A DNA stretch of 64,000 nt from an uncultured Candidatus Binatia bacterium (GTDB lineage: Bacteria > Desulfobacterota > Binatia > UBA9968 > JAJDTQ01): the NCBI GenBank assembly GCA_965213675.1, contig OZ243916.1, positions 992,001 through 1,056,000 of the forward strand, read 5' to 3'. Positions within the stretch are counted from its first letter, which is position 1, and each line of letters opens with the position of its first letter. Of the stretch, positions 55,726 through 64,000 are shown one piece after another. The notes below the pieces were generated by a model, which saw nothing but the letters and a program-made list of their open reading frames with translations, searched no databases and was not told the DNA's origin. A program made the position numbers and the translations under genes.

Positions 55726-56613
55726 TCAGCCGCCGTGGCTGAGCACCCACACGCCGCCGACAATGAGCGCGGCGGCCACGCCGTCCCGCGCGGTCACGGC
55801 CTCCAGGGCGCGCAGCGTGAAGCGGGACAGCACGAACGTGATGAGCGGCGAGATGCGCCAGATGGGCGCCACCAGGACCGCGGGGGCCAGCAGCAGCGCC
55901 TGGTAGGTAAAGAGCGAAGCGAGGGCCTCGGTGACCCCTGCGATGGCGAAAAGAACCGCGCTCGCCAGGGGCACCCGCTCCTGCCGCCAAGCCTGGATTC
56001 CCAGCCAGGGACCGGCCGTGAACAGGAGCACCGTGGAGGTCGTGTGATTGATCAGGGTCGCCAGGGCGGGCACGCCCGCGGCCAGCAAACCCCACCTCTT
56101 GAAGATCGGATTGATCCCGAAGGCCAGGGAGGACAGTAGCGGGTACATGAAATACACCAGCCGGTTGGGCGCGCCCTCCCCTTCCAGCGGACTCGCCGAC
56201 AGCAGCAGCACACCGGCCACGATCACCACCACCCCGACGAAGATCTCCCAACCCACCTGCTCGCTCAGGAGCGCCCACCCGAGAAACACCGTGATGAGCG
56301 GCGAGGAGTTCTTCACCGTCACGGCCTTGGACGCGCCGACGCTGTCGATGCCCAAATTCAAGAAGACCTTCCCCAGACAGGCCGCCACGCCCGTCAGCAC
56401 GAAGGACAGCATCGGAGCCTCGTCCAGCCACGCGAACTCCCCGCGCCAGGCCGTCGCCGCCACCAACGTCGCAAGGGACCAGTACTGGGTCACCAGCGTC
56501 GCCATGGTCACGTTCGACCGCGCCATGCCCTTCTTGAGAAGAGCCGGCCCCACGCCCCAGATGATGCCCGCAGCCAGGGCGTAGAGGACGGCTTGGGTGG
56601 GGTTGTCGATCAT
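55726..56613 (-). CDS. DMT/EamA-family transporter
   Basis: About 10 TM segments, two EamA repeats. Confidence 0.8.
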   Translation of the reverse strand: MIDNPTQAVLYALAAGIIWGVGPALLKKGMARSNVTMATLVTQYWSLATLVAATAWRGEFAWLDEAPMLSFVLTGVAACLGKVFLNLGIDSVGASKAVTVKNSSPLITVFLGWALLSEQVGWEIFVGVVVIVAGVLLLSASPLEGEGAPNRLVYFMYPLLSSLAFGINPIFKRWGLLAAGVPALATLINHTTSTVLLFTAGPWLGIQAWRQERVPLASAVLFAIAGVTEALASLFTYQALLLAPAVLVAPIWRISPLITFVLSRFTLRALEAVTARDGVAAALIVGGVWVLSHGG

Positions 56614-56716: not shown

Positions 56717-56741
56717 GTCCAGGGGGCTCCGCCCCCTGGAC
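56717..56741 (-). other. Perfect 11-bp hairpin with GGA triloop just downstream of the FGE-domain gene (candidate DGR target-recognition stem-loop)
   Basis: Minus strand GTCCAGGGGGC-GGA-GCCCCCTGGAC, starting about 30 nt after the stop codon; preceded by a (CTTTACCT)x2 repeat. Confidence 0.6.
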
Positions 56742-56770
56742 CCCCACAAATGAGGTAAAGAGGTAAAGAT

Positions 56771-58954
56771 TCACGGGGTGAGCGTTCTGGCGATACGGAA
56801 CCCGACGTCGATGAACCGGTACGTGGAGGAGTACCTGAAGCGGTTGGCGGACCGGAGGTTCCTCGGTACGTCGAACCAGGAACCGCCGCGCAACACGCGC
56901 TGGCTGCAATCCCCCCCACTCACCCAAGCACTCCCGTCAGTCGGCGCTCCTTCGTAGCTGCCGTGCCAACAGTCCTCCACCCACTCCCGTACATTCCCAT
57001 GTACATCGTCCAATCCAAATCCATTCGCCAGATAACTCCCCACTGGTATCGTCCGCTTACGATAGTGCCCCTTCCAACCCAACCCGTACGTGTAGTTCCC
57101 GTTGTAGTTCGCCTGGTCCGTCCCAATCGTCGTTCCCGTATGAAACGGCCCTGCCGTCCCCGCTCGCGCCACATACTCCCACTCCGCCTCACTCAGTAGA
57201 CGATACCCCTTCCCTGTCCGCCTCGATAACCACGCCACGTACCCCTTCGCGTCCTCCCAACTCACGTTCACCACCGGTCGCCCCCCGCGTCCCCATCCCC
57301 TATCATCCGGCCGATACCCCCGACATCCTCCCCCTGCTACACACGCATCCCACTCCCCAAAAGTTACCTCGTACTTCCCCACCGCAAACGCCTTGCCTAT
57401 CCGCACCCGGTGACGCGGCCCCTCGCCCGAGTCCCTGCCTTCTTCTCCATCCGGCGATCCCATCGTGTACTCCCCAGACGGTACCACCACCATCTCCGGA
57501 CACTCCCCGCAGTCCCGAAACTCCCGCCCAGGTCGCTCCGCCTCCTCCCGGGCCTTCCGAGCCGCCGCCGCCTTCGCTCTTGCCCTTCTCTCCCGTTCCG
57601 CGGCCTCCTGAGCCAAACGCTCCCGCTCCGCCTCCTCCTGTTTTCGCCGCGCCGCTTCCGCTCGCGCTACATCCTCCCCGATCGCCTTCAATGCGCCAGC
57701 CTGTTCCCGCGTCAGGTATCCCGTCGCCGCCAACCCTTTCTCTTTCTGCCATGCCTCAATCGCACTCCGCGTCTTCTTCCCGAACAAGCCGTCCGCATAT
57801 CCGACCCCGAGTCGCAACTTCGCCAACCCCTGCTGGATCAGTACCCGCGCGGGCCGGTGCAAACCCAATGCATCTTCCATCGCCTTATGATCCGGCGCCT
57901 TCAATGCCGGTTCTCCTGGCAATGCGTCTTCCCGCGCCGGCGCCCTCGACATCGCAGCCCCTCCGGTCTCCGCTGTGCTGTCTCTCTTGTCGTCTCCCTC
58001 CTCCTTTCCTCCCAGGGCTCCTGCCTTTGCTGCGTCCATCCCCGGCCGCGCTGGAAAACCCTTTCCTTCCGCCGCCACCGCCGCCAGCACCACTTTCCCC
58101 GATCCCATCAGGTTCGCCTTCTGCACCCGACGGTGCACCCGACGCGCCGCCCGCGTCATCCAACGGTCCAGGTAACCCTTCGCCTCCTCCGCCGTCACTC
58201 TCCCGTCCTTGTCCGCGTCCCCTTTGCCGTACAGCGCGTTCAGCAGATGATGCGTGAACAGCCCGTGCCTTGCCTTGTCGTCCCACGACGCAATCTGCTC
58301 CCCGCTCGCCGCAGTCAACGCCGTCACCTTCCGCGATGCCGCTTGCGGCAGCGTCGCCTTCACAAACACCGGGCTCGCCGAACCTATCAGTCCGCCCTCG
58401 TTCGTCCCGCCCGAAAAACACGCGTCCAGAAACACCGCCACGCTCCGGGCCTCCGCCAACTTCCCCAGGTTCTCGTACAACAAATCGATGGGATACCCGT
58501 CGTCCTCCGCCGCCTTCGGGTCAACGTCCACCGGCAGCAAATATCCCCTCTTGTCGCGTTGCCCCGGCACCCCGTGCCCTGAGTAGAACACCACCACGTC
58601 CGAGCCCCCCTCCGGGTCCAGGTAGCTCCACAAAAGGCTCCCCGATGGGTCGCTCCGGGTTCCCAAGGCATCGTACAGTTGCCGCCGCCGCGCGTCCCGC
58701 AAATCGATCACGTTCTCCGCATCGAATCCCAGCACATCCAGCACGTACCTCTTGAACGCCTCCGCGTCCCGGTGCGCATACGTTACGTCCGGAACGTCCC
58801 GGTGCTCGTAGTCCCCGTTGCCGATGATCACCGCCACCCCACGCGCATTGCGCACCTCCGCCCACGCCAATGGACTCTCATGAGTCATCCACAGGCCCGC
58901 GCCCATGGCAACTACCCAGACAACAGCCACCCGCCGCCAGCAACGTCTTCTCAT
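56771..58954 (-). CDS. Secreted caspase-like (C14) peptidase + peptidoglycan-binding + coiled coil + FGE-sulfatase (SUMF1, C-lectin fold) protein; putative DGR target
   Basis: Signal peptide; YSGHG and LDACFSG dyad; ADGLFGKKTRSAI PG-binding motif; FRDCGECPEMV, EAEWEY, GNVREW, RGGSW...GFRIAR. Confidence 0.88.
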   Translation of the reverse strand: MRRRCWRRVAVVWVVAMGAGLWMTHESPLAWAEVRNARGVAVIIGNGDYEHRDVPDVTYAHRDAEAFKRYVLDVLGFDAENVIDLRDARRRQLYDALGTRSDPSGSLLWSYLDPEGGSDVVVFYSGHGVPGQRDKRGYLLPVDVDPKAAEDDGYPIDLLYENLGKLAEARSVAVFLDACFSGGTNEGGLIGSASPVFVKATLPQAASRKVTALTAASGEQIASWDDKARHGLFTHHLLNALYGKGDADKDGRVTAEEAKGYLDRWMTRAARRVHRRVQKANLMGSGKVVLAAVAAEGKGFPARPGMDAAKAGALGGKEEGDDKRDSTAETGGAAMSRAPAREDALPGEPALKAPDHKAMEDALGLHRPARVLIQQGLAKLRLGVGYADGLFGKKTRSAIEAWQKEKGLAATGYLTREQAGALKAIGEDVARAEAARRKQEEAERERLAQEAAERERRARAKAAAARKAREEAERPGREFRDCGECPEMVVVPSGEYTMGSPDGEEGRDSGEGPRHRVRIGKAFAVGKYEVTFGEWDACVAGGGCRGYRPDDRGWGRGGRPVVNVSWEDAKGYVAWLSRRTGKGYRLLSEAEWEYVARAGTAGPFHTGTTIGTDQANYNGNYTYGLGWKGHYRKRTIPVGSYLANGFGLDDVHGNVREWVEDCWHGSYEGAPTDGSAWVSGGDCSQRVLRGGSWFDVPRNLRSANRFRYSSTYRFIDVGFRIARTLTP

Positions 58955-58982: not shown

Positions 58983-59621
58983 CTACCGCGTCAGGCTCCG
59001 CGCCACGCGGAAACCAATCTCGTCCCCCCGAAACGAAAACCCCATGGTCAGATTGTCGTAGTTGCGGAATCCCGCGCGGAGTACCGACTTCCAGTCATTC
59101 CAGGAACCGCCGCGGATCACGTGCGCGGAACAAATCTCGTAGGAGGGCGGTTGCCACGAAGCATCGGGCGTCGCATCCGCCGCCGGACCGAAGCGGACGT
59201 TCCTGCCGGAGAAACGCGGCGCGGCGCTCAGCTTCTCCACCGTGATCTCGGCGCCCTCGATGACCATATGCACGTCGGTATCCGGGTTTAGGTTCATTCT
59301 ACCTAGGAGAATGGTGAGCCATTCCTCCACCTTGTGCGCCGGCGCGGAGGTGACGTAAGCGTATCTGCGCATCGCTGCATCGGAGCTCATCAGGGTGTGA
59401 CTCCGGTAACCCGGAAACTCCCCCGCCATGACGTCGATGATGTTCCGCGCCTCGCCCGGAGCAAAGTAGCGCAGCGTCACCGTGTAGGGCGTCACCAGCC
59501 CGTGCCTGCCATCTGGAAACGACTCACCGCGCTGCGCCGGCCCACCCGGCTGCACCGCGCAACCCGACAACACCCACGCAAGCACTACCGCGCCAACGAC
59601 TGTCTTCAAGAGATGTGACAC
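58983..59621 (-). CDS. Lipoprotein with an unrecognised domain fused to a C-terminal fragment of an FGE/C-lectin domain
   Basis: AAGGAGG RBS + GTG; lipobox LSGC; TPYTVT...EFPGYRSH domain; tail HVIRGGSW...IGFRVARSL. Confidence 0.7.
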   Translation of the reverse strand: MSHLLKTVVGAVVLAWVLSGCAVQPGGPAQRGESFPDGRHGLVTPYTVTLRYFAPGEARNIIDVMAGEFPGYRSHTLMSSDAAMRRYAYVTSAPAHKVEEWLTILLGRMNLNPDTDVHMVIEGAEITVEKLSAAPRFSGRNVRFGPAADATPDASWQPPSYEICSAHVIRGGSWNDWKSVLRAGFRNYDNLTMGFSFRGDEIGFRVARSLTR

Positions 59622-59674
59622 GTGGTGGCCTCCTTCCGTCGATGCGGTCCGCTTATCATACATTTCGGGGGGGC

Positions 59675-60631
59675 CTATTCGGAAATCGCCCTATCGTCGC
59701 CGGATCGTGTGCGGTTGGAGGTGGGGACGATCCTCTCCACGGTGATGTCCGTGCCCTCGATGGCGATGCGGACATCCCTGTCGGGATCGAAATTCATGTC
59801 CGCGAGCAGGATCGCCAGCCATTCCTCCATCCTGGCGGTCGTGGCCGTGGTGACATAGGCGTACCGCCGCACGCCCTGATCGGTACGCATCAGCTGGTGG
59901 CTACGGTAGCCCGGAAACTCCTCCGCCATGACCGCGATCATGGTCAACGCTTCTCGTCTGTCAAAGAGCCTGAAAGTGACGGTGTAGGGGGTCTCGATGC
60001 CACCACCCGGAACATCGCGGAAGCGGGCGAGCCTCGCGACCAGCCCGTTTCCGAGGGTCGTGGCGAGTTCCCTGGCGTGGCCCCCCACCACCCGGGCGAT
60101 GCAGCCCGGTTCGTCGAGGCAACCCGGGGGACCGAGGTACGACTGCTCCACTTCGACGCTGTCCTCGAACCGGTTGGAAGCCAGGTCGTAGATGTCGCTC
60201 TTCATGCGGATCCCGATGCGGGTGACGCTGTACAAGGATCTGACTTCCGCACGGACGCTGATCAACGCCAAGGCGCGCACCGCATGCGTGGCATCGGCGC
60301 TCTGGTTCATCAACTTGGCCATGTCGATGAGGTCCATCCGGGGGCGACGGTCGCGTATCTGCCAATCGAGGTCCACGGCCACCGCGGCCTCCTCGACGAC
60401 TCGGAAACCCGCGCGGCTCATTACGCCTTTAAGCTCGGCGATGACGCGCTGGAAGATCTCGTGACTGCGTGGGATGGTGGATGGGTCCTCGTCCTCGCCC
60501 GCCACGAGCACCGGCACGGCAGCGGCGCGAGCCGGCGCCTGCGCAAAGGATACGGCCGGCGTCATCAAAATGATGAGCGCCGCGAGGATCGCTCCCAGCA
60601 GAAAACCAGAGTATTGCGCATGGATCCGCAT
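59675..60631 (-). CDS. Exported hypothetical protein; C-terminal domain paralogous to that of 58983-59621
   Basis: Signal peptide (SFA-Q); shared TPYTVT...EFPGYRSH...RRYAYVT...EEWL...ITVE domain. Confidence 0.75.
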   Translation of the reverse strand: MRIHAQYSGFLLGAILAALIILMTPAVSFAQAPARAAAVPVLVAGEDEDPSTIPRSHEIFQRVIAELKGVMSRAGFRVVEEAAVAVDLDWQIRDRRPRMDLIDMAKLMNQSADATHAVRALALISVRAEVRSLYSVTRIGIRMKSDIYDLASNRFEDSVEVEQSYLGPPGCLDEPGCIARVVGGHARELATTLGNGLVARLARFRDVPGGGIETPYTVTFRLFDRREALTMIAVMAEEFPGYRSHQLMRTDQGVRRYAYVTTATTARMEEWLAILLADMNFDPDRDVRIAIEGTDITVERIVPTSNRTRSGDDRAISE

Positions 60632-60683
60632 ATTCGATTCCCTATGTTGGTTCTACCCCGTGGGTCGCGAACTCTCCGACCCC

Positions 60684-61109
60684 CTACCCGCCGCCCGGGA
60701 CGGACGGTGCTCCGTACGTCTCCACTCCGCTTGGCGCATCGATGACATTCACGGGATGGTCCCGCTGGATGGACACCACCTCGGGCATACCGAGAAGGCG
60801 CATCACCGTGGCAGCGTCGGCTTCCAACGCCATCATCGGCAGGTTCTCGAAGACCCTGGCCGATTCCTGGGCCGGGGCGTCGAGCCGCGCGAGGATGGCC
60901 TCCGCCACGATCCCGATGGCATTCGCCGACGGCGCGGCTGCGCCTGGCGGACCCGCGGCGCCTTCCGGCAACGCGAACTCGACGACGATTTTCTGACGCT
61001 CCGAGGCCTTCTGCATTCCCGGGCCGGCCGGTGCGCATGCCAGCCCCGCCGCCATGAGCAGCCATGCCGCGGTCATCCTGCCTGCGTTCCTCATGGTCGT
61101 CATCGTCAT
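60684..61109 (-). CDS. Small lipoprotein resembling a subtilisin propeptide (inhibitor I9-like)
   Basis: GGAGG RBS; lipobox GLAC; IVVEF...RVFENLPMMALEAD...L..PEVVSIQRD pattern. Confidence 0.65.
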   Translation of the reverse strand: MTMTTMRNAGRMTAAWLLMAAGLACAPAGPGMQKASERQKIVVEFALPEGAAGPPGAAAPSANAIGIVAEAILARLDAPAQESARVFENLPMMALEADAATVMRLLGMPEVVSIQRDHPVNVIDAPSGVETYGAPSVPGGG

Positions 61110-61113
61110 GTCT

Positions 61114-63192
61114 TCAGCCTCCAATGGGCTGCCAAGCGCCTTCCGTGCCTGACGGTGCGCCCGTGCTCGGCGGTGCGTCCTTGTTCGCCGGCTCGTCTTT
61201 GGCTGGCGGTTGGCCGCCTTTGTCGCCGCCACCCGCGGCCCCGGAATCGCGATCGCTTCCATGGACCCCCAACGCCCGCAGCGCACCCGCCACGTTCAAC
61301 GTGGGCTTGCGGATGCCATTGCGTTCATCCGTGATCTGCCGCCCGGCGTTCAGCAACGCACGGTAGAGATCGCGCACCGGGCTACGCGGCGACGCCTGTC
61401 GCAACACGGCAAATGCCCCGGCCACGTGCGGCGCGGCCATGGAAGTTCCGGGAAGCTCCTTGAACGGCGCTTCGTTCGTCGGCGACCGCGGCACAGACGA
61501 CAGAATATCCACACCCGGAGCCAGAATGTCGAGCGTTGGCGCGCTGTTGGAGAAGTCCGCCACTTTCGTCTGCTTGTCCACGGCGCCGACGCTCACGATG
61601 CCACGTACGCACGCGGGATGCGCAATGCCCCGGGTCTGACCTTCGTTGCCCGCCGCGGCCACGATCACCACCCCCTCCGCGGCCAGCAGGCGCACGGCGA
61701 GGTCGTAGATGCTGTCCTGGCATGGCGTGGCGGCGTGCCGCGGCGAACCGAGGCTCATGTTGATGGACGCGATGTGGACACGCCCGCTCCGGGCCACGCC
61801 GATGAGCCAGTCCAGGGCGCCCAGCACCGTGGAATTGCTCGCGCCGAGTTTCCCGTCCACGCGACTGAAGACATTGATGGCGATCAGGCCTGCTTCCGGG
61901 GCCACGCCCGCCATATCCACGCCCCGGCCCACGGCGATGCCAGCCACGTGGGTGCCGTGGTTAGCCACCGGCCGGGCTGCTCCGGGCCCCGCCATCCGGC
62001 GTTTCCCGTTGGGGCAGCGGCTTGAGAAACAGGCCTCGGCCACGGGACGTCCGGCGATGAAAGGATGGTTCACGTCCACACCCGTGTCCACCACGGCCAC
62101 GAACGTACCTTTGCCCGTATAACCGCCTCGGTGCGGCCCGTGCGCCCCCACCATGGGTCCGCTGTCGTCCAGGTAAGGTACCACCGGGAGGTCTCGCCAG
62201 ATGCGCACCCCGGCATCGTAGCCCTTGGCCGCGGCGAGTCCCTTGGCGTCCACCTTCATGGCAATGACCGGCAGGTGCTCGTAGCGGCGCACCTCGGTCA
62301 TCCGGCCCCGTCCGCCCACGGCCTTCACGAACGCGTCACCGGTCACCGCCACCAGCCCGGCCTTCCAACCGGTGCTCCCGCTCGTCTCATCGCCGGTGAC
62401 CGGGTGCCAACCCGTCACCAGCACGGCCGCCGTCTCCTGCCCGTCGGCCGCGGCCGACAACATTTCGTACTCGTCCACCGCGGCCCGCTCGCCGCTCGAT
62501 TCCGTCGATCCTGGGGATAACGGGCCGCCTGGGACTGGCGCCGTACCCGGCGCCGCCGGGTCGGCGGCGGTCATGGACACGACGCGCTCCGACCGATCTC
62601 GGGTCTCTGGAGCGCGCCGCACCGAAGCGTTGGGCGATGCGGGAGTGTCCGACTCCTCCATGGCGCTTGGAGCAGCTTGGGCGAAGACCACAATCTCCAC
62701 CCGCCGATGTCGCGACGAGTTTGCCGGCATACCCGCCAACAGCCGATCCTCACCGTAGCCCGCGTGGCGAAACCGCGCAGGTTCCAGTCCGAGCCCCTGC
62801 ACCAGGTACCGCACCACCGCACCCGCGCGCCTTTCGGAGAGTTGCTGGTTGTACGCCGCCCTCCCGGAGGCGTCGGTGTGGCCGTAGACACCCACGTCGT
62901 AGGATCTGAGCCGATCTCCGCCCAACGCCGCGCCCAGTTCGTCCAGTTGCTGCCGCGCCCTGGCGGTCAACTCGGCCGAGTTGACCGCGAACGGCACCCT
63001 CAGGTCCACAGAACGCTGTTCCTCCCCCGTCACCGGCACCAGCCGGTCCGTCAGTTCCTGGCGGTCGACGGGTTGCGACCGCGCCGCCGCCGGCACGAAC
63101 ACCGGCGCGATCACGACAAGGAGCGCGAGCGTGAGCCCCGCCAGCCGCGACCCCGGACGTGCCCACCCTGGCATACGCGAGAACCGCTTCAT
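61114..63192 (-). CDS. Exported OmpA-like PG-binding domain fused to an S8 subtilase
   Basis: GHTD...YNQQLSERRA...RRVEI (OmpA_C); catalytic triad VDTG, HGTHVAG, GTSMAAP. Confidence 0.9.
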   Translation of the reverse strand: MKRFSRMPGWARPGSRLAGLTLALLVVIAPVFVPAAARSQPVDRQELTDRLVPVTGEEQRSVDLRVPFAVNSAELTARARQQLDELGAALGGDRLRSYDVGVYGHTDASGRAAYNQQLSERRAGAVVRYLVQGLGLEPARFRHAGYGEDRLLAGMPANSSRHRRVEIVVFAQAAPSAMEESDTPASPNASVRRAPETRDRSERVVSMTAADPAAPGTAPVPGGPLSPGSTESSGERAAVDEYEMLSAAADGQETAAVLVTGWHPVTGDETSGSTGWKAGLVAVTGDAFVKAVGGRGRMTEVRRYEHLPVIAMKVDAKGLAAAKGYDAGVRIWRDLPVVPYLDDSGPMVGAHGPHRGGYTGKGTFVAVVDTGVDVNHPFIAGRPVAEACFSSRCPNGKRRMAGPGAARPVANHGTHVAGIAVGRGVDMAGVAPEAGLIAINVFSRVDGKLGASNSTVLGALDWLIGVARSGRVHIASINMSLGSPRHAATPCQDSIYDLAVRLLAAEGVVIVAAAGNEGQTRGIAHPACVRGIVSVGAVDKQTKVADFSNSAPTLDILAPGVDILSSVPRSPTNEAPFKELPGTSMAAPHVAGAFAVLRQASPRSPVRDLYRALLNAGRQITDERNGIRKPTLNVAGALRALGVHGSDRDSGAAGGGDKGGQPPAKDEPANKDAPPSTGAPSGTEGAWQPIGG

Positions 63193-63222
63193 CCCCGACT
63201 CCTTTCTCTTCGTTCGGCCCTA

Positions 63223-63972
63223 TCAGAAGAACCGCCGGGAACGGACCGTTGCACACGCCGACCCATCGTCCGAGCGGACCTGTCGCTGGCCGAGCGGCGC
63301 GGCGCTGCATCCCTCTTCACGGCCGGAATGCCACCGATCCTGGTGAAGGGGACGACCGTGGTTCCGGCCATCGCCAGCCCGTGCGTCGTCGCCCTGTCGG
63401 AAGCCGACTCCGTCATCAAGGAAACGGGCGCCGCGCGCCTCATCCAGCAGCGATGTGAAGGCCGCGTCCTTCTGATAGCGCACCCACCAGTCCATGACCG
63501 CGGCCACATACTTCAGAGTGCCGTCGTGCATCACCGGCCCCTCGTTGCAGCGCAACAGCGGCCCACGCCGGTAGTGCGACAACGTCAGGTCCCATCGTCC
63601 ATCGTAGCGCCGGTTGAGCCGCTCCAGCAAGGTCACACCCACGCCCGCGTTGGCGCGCGGGTGCTCAAGCCCGTAGGCGCGAAGGCCCAATTCCTCCCAT
63701 GCGACGGACGGCAGCACCTGCATGACGCCCACGGCCTTCGGTGCGCTGCTTTCGCGGAAGCGCTCCTTCCGCCCGACCCGCGCCACCGCCAGCGCCAGTT
63801 CCGGCGGCACCGAGCTCTTGAGGGCCGCCGCCGCCACCGCCCGCTGCCCCACGGTCCAACGCGTCTCACCCCACACCGATCCGTGTCCGAACAGTCCCAG
63901 AAACACCGCCGCCAGCGCGAGCCGGCCCACGCTTGGAAACCGGCGCACTTGTCGTTGCCGCTGGCTGCTCAT
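63223..63972 (-). CDS. SLT-family lytic transglycosylase-like protein, catalytic Glu apparently lost
   Basis: PELALAVARVG (canonical VES), GVMQVLP, LSHYRRG (canonical YNxG), YVAAV; AAGGAG RBS. Confidence 0.7.
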   Translation of the reverse strand: MSSQRQRQVRRFPSVGRLALAAVFLGLFGHGSVWGETRWTVGQRAVAAAALKSSVPPELALAVARVGRKERFRESSAPKAVGVMQVLPSVAWEELGLRAYGLEHPRANAGVGVTLLERLNRRYDGRWDLTLSHYRRGPLLRCNEGPVMHDGTLKYVAAVMDWWVRYQKDAAFTSLLDEARGARFLDDGVGFRQGDDARAGDGRNHGRPLHQDRWHSGREEGCSAAPLGQRQVRSDDGSACATVRSRRFF

Positions 63973-64000
63973 GTTCTCCTTGTCACGTGTCACGCGCACT

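Follow-up and report, generated by a model that had tools for sequence, protein, structure and literature searches.

An exported caspase-lectin gene of a Candidatus Binatia bacterium is probably an orphaned target of a diversity-generating retroelement

Caspase-linked C-type lectin (CLec) targets of diversity-generating retroelements (DGRs), targets remote from the DGR reverse transcriptase (RT) and remnant variable regions (VRs) are already in print (PMC7517822, PMC10907252, PMC5758913). We analysed a window of 64,000 nucleotides from an uncultured Candidatus Binatia bacterium (GenBank assembly GCA_965213675.1, contig OZ243916.1, positions 992,001 to 1,056,000), in which gene A, encoding an exported caspase-lectin protein, ends in a VR followed by a hairpin. 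In cyanobacteria, DGR variable proteins are reported with C-terminal CLec modules on orthocaspase-like and other N-termini and as dispersed paralogs, and a Nostoc paralog with remnant homology between template repeat (TR) and VR has no RT nearby; removal of the machinery after selection of an optimal variant was suggested (PMC7517822). Gene A is similar in placing a CLec module on a caspase-type N-terminus, in having a paralog and in carrying a VR without an adjacent RT. The cyanobacterial genome, however, still holds DGRs, with most targets predicted to be cytosolic, whereas gene A encodes an exported peptidoglycan-binding protein in a genome in which no DGR RT was found.

The 'antigen sensors' of Thiohalocapsa PB-PSB1 and clade 5 resemble the present system in their caspase-tied CLec targets, degenerate loci, activity in trans and some secreted targets (PMC10907252). 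Those systems are built on STAND NTPase or MoxR/vWA proteins of multicellular bacteria, and none of these families is seen at this locus; nine supplementary files of that paper contain no match to 'Binat' or 'ankyrin'. Treponema denticola TvpA is likewise an exported target with an FGE-type CLec fold, and several remote targets are described there (PMC5758913), but in Treponema the template and RT reside in the same genome, whereas neither was found in the present one.

Gene A and the elements at its 3' end are as follows.

56771..58954, minus strand: gene A, a 727-aa open reading frame (ORF) and DGR target (ORF list, Pfam, structure model with mean pLDDT 82)
56780..56898, minus strand: VR, taken as the extent of homology to congener template repeats (template comparison)
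56753..56768, minus strand: two 8-base pyrimidine-rich repeats directly after the stop codon, a tail conserved behind targets of the same DGR clade
56717..56741, minus strand: target hairpin or cruciform with a perfect 11-bp stem and a GGA loop, identical to the hairpin of the cis target in congener G007

The initial annotation of this DNA had proposed a DGR variable region and target hairpin on an exported caspase/peptidoglycan-binding/FGE protein, a proposal upheld by template comparison and by the identity of the hairpin. The codon string, pyrimidine repeats and hairpin are all where it had placed them, on the minus strand, which it had not stated. The variable codons of gene A run from 56875 to about 56804. 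Templates were taken from congeners, 27 Candidatus Binatia genomes of the same genus; those of G006, G007, G011, G015, G026 and G027 were compared (that of G005 was missed by the anchor), and all are proxies for the template of gene A itself. Against these six, gene A has mismatches at 16-17 of the 28-30 adenine sites and at 5-15 of the 78-80 other sites. The closest template, from G015, disagrees with gene A at 16 of 29 adenine sites and at 5 of the 79 others (Fisher P = 1.3e-7), so that on proxy templates gene A has a 3'-terminal VR that departs from the template mainly at adenines. The real templates agree with the one that had been foreseen from the VR of gene A, and adenine specificity of the mismatches, proposed as a check at the time, is borne out against them. 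Among the congeners, targets and templates part at the last codons, which bears on whether the initiation of mutagenic homing sequence (IMH) of a target differs from the IMH* of its template.

When the whole of this genome (G000) was scanned with the VR of gene A, a single further match turned up, and it lies in a paralog.

G000:C1:1071454..1069304 (L001 15454..13304), minus strand: paralog B, a caspase/peptidoglycan-binding/FGE gene with its own VR allele (whole-genome scan)

The VRs of A and B disagree at 15 of 108 sites. Of these differences, 14 fall among the 35 sites that are adenine in one template or more, and 12 among the 29 sites that are adenine in most templates (P = 4.9e-6). The last ~120 bp of A and B are products of adenine-specific mutagenic retrohoming from a template of this DGR clade. 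The residue pattern of homologs agrees. A protein search with the caspase and peptidoglycan-binding part gave 1223 hits among 8000 candidates scored; of the 120 homologs listed, 82 have an FGE-like tail at their end, and 66 conform to the fixed VR scaffold, no two of these with the same VR. Lys, Glu, Gln, Met and Trp, which an NNC codon cannot encode, make up 9 of 726 residues at the 11 AAC-derived positions of these 66 homologs, compared with 17.6% elsewhere in the same domains; at the AAA-derived position they occur in 12 of 66 homologs, as expected. The preponderance of NNC codons noticed initially is thus beyond chance, both from the template comparison and from the homologs.

The hairpin of gene A starts 29 nt past the stop codon, and nine of its 11 stem pairs are G/C. 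Hairpins of phage DGR targets are reported to have stems of 7-10 bp, 4-nt GRNA loops and a distance of 4-34 bp from the VR (PMC3240598). As in Bordetella BPP-1, a GC-rich stem stands 3' of the VR, at a spacing within that range when counted from the stop codon; unlike there, the stem has 11 bp and the GGA loop 3 nt. The 'GRA' loop rule invoked initially accommodates the loop of gene A but is too narrow for the clade, since congener loops are GGA, GAA, GCA, GTA and GGAA. Folding of the 91-nt end of gene A gives z = -2.4, with 3 of 200 shuffles equally good. Because its 25-mer occurs once in the genome and its loop is the sole GGA among 22 perfect 11-bp stems with 3-nt loops on the 3.97-Mb chromosome, a generic repetitive extragenic palindrome (REP) was ruled out. 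There is no such hairpin 3' of the VR in paralog B.

The machinery itself was sought in the window and in the whole genome. That the window holds no RT, avd or TR had been noted initially and is confirmed. G000 is a metagenome bin of 21 contigs, 97.7% complete with 8% contamination. No DGR RT was found in it: the RVT_1 profile gave no candidate and a congener RT no match at E<=10. Nor was Avd found, with no match at E<=1 to the family profile (a control profile, NF033474, rang only below its cut-off) and none at E<=1 in tblastn with a congener Avd. An ungapped whole-genome scan for a TR returned only A and B, and a scan for AAC runs five unrelated places. Blastn with six congener cassettes matched only the VRs of A and B, a third FGE gene and chance stretches of 20-50 bp. 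The predicted copy of the VR beside an RT gene was not found in this genome. The two ends of contig C1 are connected over 669 bp by contig C17, a strain variant. C1 also covers at least 74% of each of 11 among the 20 small contigs, mostly at 97-99% identity; on these grounds the chromosome is practically closed.

Complete cassettes were found in relatives. The gene end was matched in 19 of 60 relatives, 17 of them among the 27 congeners, and the VR/TR pattern is present in 12 of the 28 genomes of the genus, with no control matches. A full-length DGR RT occurs in six congeners (G005, G007, G011, G015, G026 and G027), that of G015 with frame breaks near the avd and RT starts. The initial reading had been staked on a TR and RT existing in this genome or in close relatives; they were not found in the former and are present in the latter. 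The cassette runs in the order target, VR, pyrimidine repeats, hairpin, avd (PF22296, below its cut-off), RT (PF00078) and TR, which lies inside the 3' end of the RT in G007 (L031 179..1687, plus strand) and G011 (L032 3092..1434, minus strand). The cis target is a caspase/peptidoglycan-binding/FGE protein like that of gene A in G011 and G026, and a Sel1/ankyrin/FGE protein in G005, G007, G015 and G027. In the cis pairs of G006, G007, G011 and G026, 14-19 of 28-30 adenine sites differ as against 0-3 of 78-80 others (14 of 30 and 0 of 78 in G026). The cis pair of G015 has nine non-adenine mismatches, and that of G027 has 14, a figure inflated by an insertion in the ungapped comparison. Against the resident templates, a remote target in G015 (L006) has mismatches at 16 of 29 adenine sites as against 1 of 79 others, and one in G027 has 10 of 79 non-adenine mismatches.

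Decay of these cassettes is common. G006 has a broken RT, G002 and G010 have mere scraps of one (in G010 behind the target), and avd with a truncated RT occurs in G015 and G027. Half of the 12 VR-bearing genomes (G000, G002, G006, G010, G023 and G024) lack a full RT, and three of these consist of one contig each. All six cis targets of full cassettes are followed by a perfect stem of 7 bp or more, as are three of eight remote targets in RT-bearing genomes and three of 12 targets in genomes without a full RT (G020 included), gene A being one of these three. The difference between 6 of 6 and 3 of 12 has P = 0.0045, among kin that are not independent. In G020, group II intron-like RTs account for 29 matches, at 27-32% identity to the DGR RT and with many identical copies among them.

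Paralog B sits 20.5 kb upstream of gene A, outside the window, between a carboxylase and an alcohol dehydrogenase gene. The two genes share one module.

56764..57546, minus strand: FGE/C-lectin module common to A and B, 93.5% identical in DNA to G000:C1:1069297-1070079

DNA identity between A and B is 61% in the caspase part and 56% in the linker part, rises to 94.7% over codons 471-690, falls to 85.6% over the last 37 codons and stops 7 bases beyond the stop codon. The lectin module was therefore duplicated as one unit. When 25 lectin modules were placed in a tree (three of 28 were skipped for lack of the anchor), A and B came out as sisters, with 94.4% identity to each other and no more than 79.4% to any other; pairs from one genome likewise cluster in G002, G006, G015 and G023.

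The insertion site of gene A is a conserved block of carboxylase, EamA, alcohol dehydrogenase and mutL genes.

55726..56613, minus strand: EamA transporter, a conserved core gene that marks the insertion site (Pfam and congener loci)

EamA starts 103 bp past the hairpin, a position occupied by the start of avd in full cassettes. Of the 19 EamA loci in congeners, 17 have no FGE gene within 1.5 kb, and the carboxylase is there in 13. G026 has a large caspase-FGE cluster at the same site. At the homologous carboxylase-EamA site of G015, a target, a hairpin, an interrupted 5' piece of avd and a lone VR follow one another (avd piece to VR, L067 11108-11730); the fragment that breaks the avd piece is presumably from an IS3 transposase. 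This arrangement is a cassette wreck at the homologous site. The lone VR begins almost exactly at the 5' boundary of the template and retains the last codons of the target. GC content at third codon positions (GC3) is 0.75 in A and 0.77 in B, compared with 0.86-0.91 in four flanking core genes.

The stretch is present, as assembled contigs only, in four sequencing runs from at most two samples of one study, from which the assembly may itself derive; no RNA run is listed among them, and the following figures hold among the pieces listed. In run X2 the VR allele of A is represented by one contig, an exact match of 142 bp at depth 14.7, with flanks at depth 21. The initial description of the protein as hypervariable is supported for its past rather than for the present. 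Run X4 has a contig with 16 differences at the VR, the same number as B. In X3 and X4, one record consists of a target end, 1493 letters and a second, template-shaped piece covering 56898..56780, with the spacing of the G007 cassette (1670 versus 1671 bp). Its depth is 3.4 versus 40.6 in X3 and 8.0 versus 26.8 in X4. Over 267 bases, the target of this record in X3 has 37 differences from A. From spacing and depth, this record is probably a co-occurring relative with a full cassette.

Taken together, we consider it likely that gene A is a true DGR target, orphaned and frozen, whose machinery has been lost from this genome. An ancestor would have carried a ~1.7-kb cassette behind such a caspase-lectin gene; the lectin module would then have been copied onto a second caspase gene, the VRs of both A and B rewritten by retrohoming, and the cassette lost afterwards, freezing two alleles. 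A would have kept its perfect hairpin, through recent loss of the cassette or through continued selection, and B stands without one. An origin outside DGRs, by ordinary paralog divergence under selection on a binding surface next to an unrelated terminator-like hairpin, is extremely improbable. Upstream of the VR, 19 non-synonymous versus 9 synonymous codons in 220 do indicate selection on the domain as well, but over the final 37 codons each of the 12 codon changes is non-synonymous, with 15 of 16 base changes at codon positions 1-2, the VR differences lie on template adenines, and the same gene end adjoins avd, RT and TR in congeners; adenine bias, congener cassettes and the homolog residue pattern refute this explanation. 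It is also conceivable, though unlikely, that the lineage never had a cassette at this site and gained already diversified lectin modules by recombination, perhaps repeatedly. The foreign GC3, the site free of FGE genes in most congeners, an RT clade that crosses phyla (see below) and a strain-variant contig bearing a different version of the island would all suit such imports. Retrohoming after the copying event is nevertheless the simplest account of A and B being the closest lectin pair with VR differences mostly at template adenines, and the avd remnant of G015 lies at the same site.

The initial annotation had proposed a DGR acting in trans. A live DGR, whose cassette would sit on DNA left out of the assembly, on a plasmid or in a subpopulation and still rewrite the VR of gene A, appears quite unlikely, and within this genome it is unsupported, with no RT, Avd or TR found in 21 contigs whose chromosome ends are bridged. 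Several points nonetheless weigh against orphaning. The hairpin and tail of gene A are perfect, and so pristine a hairpin fits a live target. Remote targets are real in the clade, as the G015 remote target shows, and are described elsewhere (PMC5758913). As G000 is a bin, the cassette could reside in a minority strain or on a plasmid that was not binned; a cassette-shaped contig does occur in the same samples, with a target 86% identical to A over 267 bp, as against 81% for the best fetched congener target, and assembled contigs drop rare variants. The cognate template of A and B is only inferred, because no template equal to either at all non-adenine sites was found anywhere: the best of 47 template-like sequences has seven non-adenine mismatches in 117 bp, an exact search of JGI metagenome contigs with the inferred template gave no match, and a looser clade pattern gave 16 loci there, none nearer than 9-10 non-adenine mismatches, and none in viral contigs. 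The low depth of the cassette-shaped contig and its 37 differences fit another organism, however, and the X3 contigs with the template-type base at 56875 have a total depth of 23.8 over three contigs.

The domains of the gene A protein point to its possible role.

58859..58954, minus strand: probable Sec signal peptide, aa 1-32, with a basic N-end and hydrophobic helix 4-22 (sequence and model)
58220..58843, minus strand: Peptidase_C14 (caspase) domain PF00656, aa 38-245 (Pfam, E 8.6e-14, above cut-off)
57689..57856, minus strand: putative peptidoglycan-binding domain PG_binding_1 PF01471, aa 367-422 (Pfam, E 2.5e-10, above cut-off)
57539..57709, minus strand: long helical spacer of 57 residues, aa 416-472 (predicted structure)

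An FGE-sulfatase domain (PF03781, above the Pfam cut-off) follows at aa 484-723, and the model shows a caspase domain, a disordered linker, the peptidoglycan-binding domain, the helix and the lectin domain in that order. A hydrophobic stretch precedes the caspase domain in 115 of 120 homologs by a crude test. By sequence, the match of the caspase domain to the PDB is weak (best E 0.076), and fold search settled the assignment: the caspase part matches the human MALT1 caspase domain (3v4o, E 1.9e-10, TM 0.68), and His127 and Cys179 are invariant across 59 aligned homologs, so that Pfam, conservation and fold all indicate a caspase fold with a His-Cys dyad. The VR is borne on a CLec fold, as judged from PF03781 and from matches to the Treponema DGR variable protein TvpA by fold (2y3c, E 1.7e-13, TM 0.70) and by sequence; PvdO and FGE are also among the fold matches of the model. 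TvpA is not known to have a caspase domain.

A catalytic FGE has two active-site cysteines after its RGGS motif, and neither A nor B has a cysteine between that motif and the C-terminus. With a VR free of cysteine, the lectin end of gene A is therefore a binding fold and not an FGE enzyme. A survey of metacaspases reported caspase with FGE in 33 of 671 sequences and peptidoglycan-binding fusions in 11, and took FGE as an enzyme partner (PMC3501461), whereas here the FGE end is a DGR-mutated binding tip. FGE-like proteins have also been reported as type VI immunity proteins (10.1101/2021.05.21.445229). The peptidoglycan-binding domain suggests a place in the periplasm rather than on the outer surface, and the most likely reading of the gene A product is a predicted ligand-directed periplasmic protease, in line with a sensor-effector proposal for DGR targets (PMC10907252). 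More specifically, and tentatively, we predict an exported, peptidoglycan-tethered protein with its lectin tip on a long helix, which may work in the periplasm as a sensor-protease directed at incoming molecules from phage, competitors or the host. A ligand at the tip would cluster or direct the His/Cys caspase domain, as in proximity-activated paracaspases.

Upstream of gene A lies a cluster of exported proteins.

58983..63999, minus strand: upstream cluster (226-aa ORF, 318-aa ORF, 200-aa ORF, OmpA-subtilase fusion, SLT transglycosylase)
58983..59663, minus strand: lipoprotein-like ORF of 226 aa whose C-terminus comprises just the final ~50 aa of an FGE domain; no hairpin follows it
61114..63192, minus strand: OmpA-like domain fused to a subtilase, adjoining the SLT transglycosylase, with homologs flanking targets in G011 and G027
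G000:C1:1063511..1061658 (L001 7511..5658), minus strand: third FGE gene for an exported protein in the cluster, lacking both a VR pattern and a hairpin, with its nearest match in the G026 cluster

Homologs of the cluster adjoin caspase-FGE targets in G011, G026 and G027, and an FGE tail like that of the 226-aa ORF also terminates a 1153-aa caspase-FGE protein in G026. Contig C11, a 4.2-kb strain variant, carries a divergent, shorter island that matches at 83% over the OmpA-subtilase gene and then jumps by ~9 kb. A repeat of ~165 bp (G000:C1:1056352-1056514, L001 352-514) has dozens of copies at 92-98% across the chromosome and resembles a miniature inverted-repeat transposable element (MITE) or REP.

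The RT clade extends well beyond the genus. A quick tree was made of 70 RTs, 11 of the 81 loci being too short; in it, a 20-RT group with SH-aLRT 99 comprises six from Binatia, seven from Acidobacteriota, five from Gammaproteobacteria and two from Alphaproteobacteria; the Binatia RTs take two weakly supported places and the cyanobacterial RTs fall outside the group. The expectation that other genes would share the 3' tail and hairpin holds for targets in congeners and for those of the clade in Acidobacteriota, Gamma- and Alphaproteobacteria. Among the FGE ORFs scanned (35 of 59 listed), 14 have ankyrin or Sel1 repeats and six a caspase domain. One acidobacterial locus (L086) has five FGE genes round one cassette, one fused to trypsin and one apparently running into template-like sequence. 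The closest viral RT is 41% identical to the clade, which leaves phage carriage of the cassette unsupported without proving its absence. The hosts of the clade are probably sponge symbionts; literature searches on this point for the acidobacterial and gammaproteobacterial members gave nothing useful. The term 'diversity-generating' is absent from the sponge papers text-searched, and no publication was found on the cross-phylum clade, its exported caspase or ankyrin/Sel1 targets, or targets in RT-less genomes, subscription journals being mostly uncovered. The main text of Roux 2021 does not contain 'sponge', and its supplement lists sponge metagenomes, with 1 DGR in one of the three rows displayed. 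A Binatota lineage, to which the present genus might belong, is reported from at least 46 sponge species (PMC9999580), and eukaryote-like proteins are reported to help bacteria escape sponge phagocytosis (PMC13747020).

A broader scenario is possible but doubtful: the ~1.7-kb avd-RT-TR cassette may move across the phyla of a symbiont community, dock behind hairpin-bearing lectin genes, rewrite the tips of exported caspase and eukaryote-like ankyrin/Sel1 proteins and then be shed. Genes of the type of A, in which the hairpin is perfect but the machinery is missing, would on this view serve as landing pads. The four-lineage clade, the mismatches of the G027 remote target, the frequent wrecks and the co-occurring cassette fit such traffic. 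Because DGR surveys start from the RT, a genome such as G000 counts as DGR-free despite its two DGR-written exported tips, and half of the VR-bearing genomes in the genus (6 of 12) are of this RT-less kind. The finding supports the idea that the machinery is dropped once a useful variant is fixed, which is testable by hairpin decay and paired VRs. The clade connects programmed hypermutation with exported caspase and ankyrin/Sel1 proteins, and could be a generator of recognition diversity at the host-symbiont or symbiont-phage interface.

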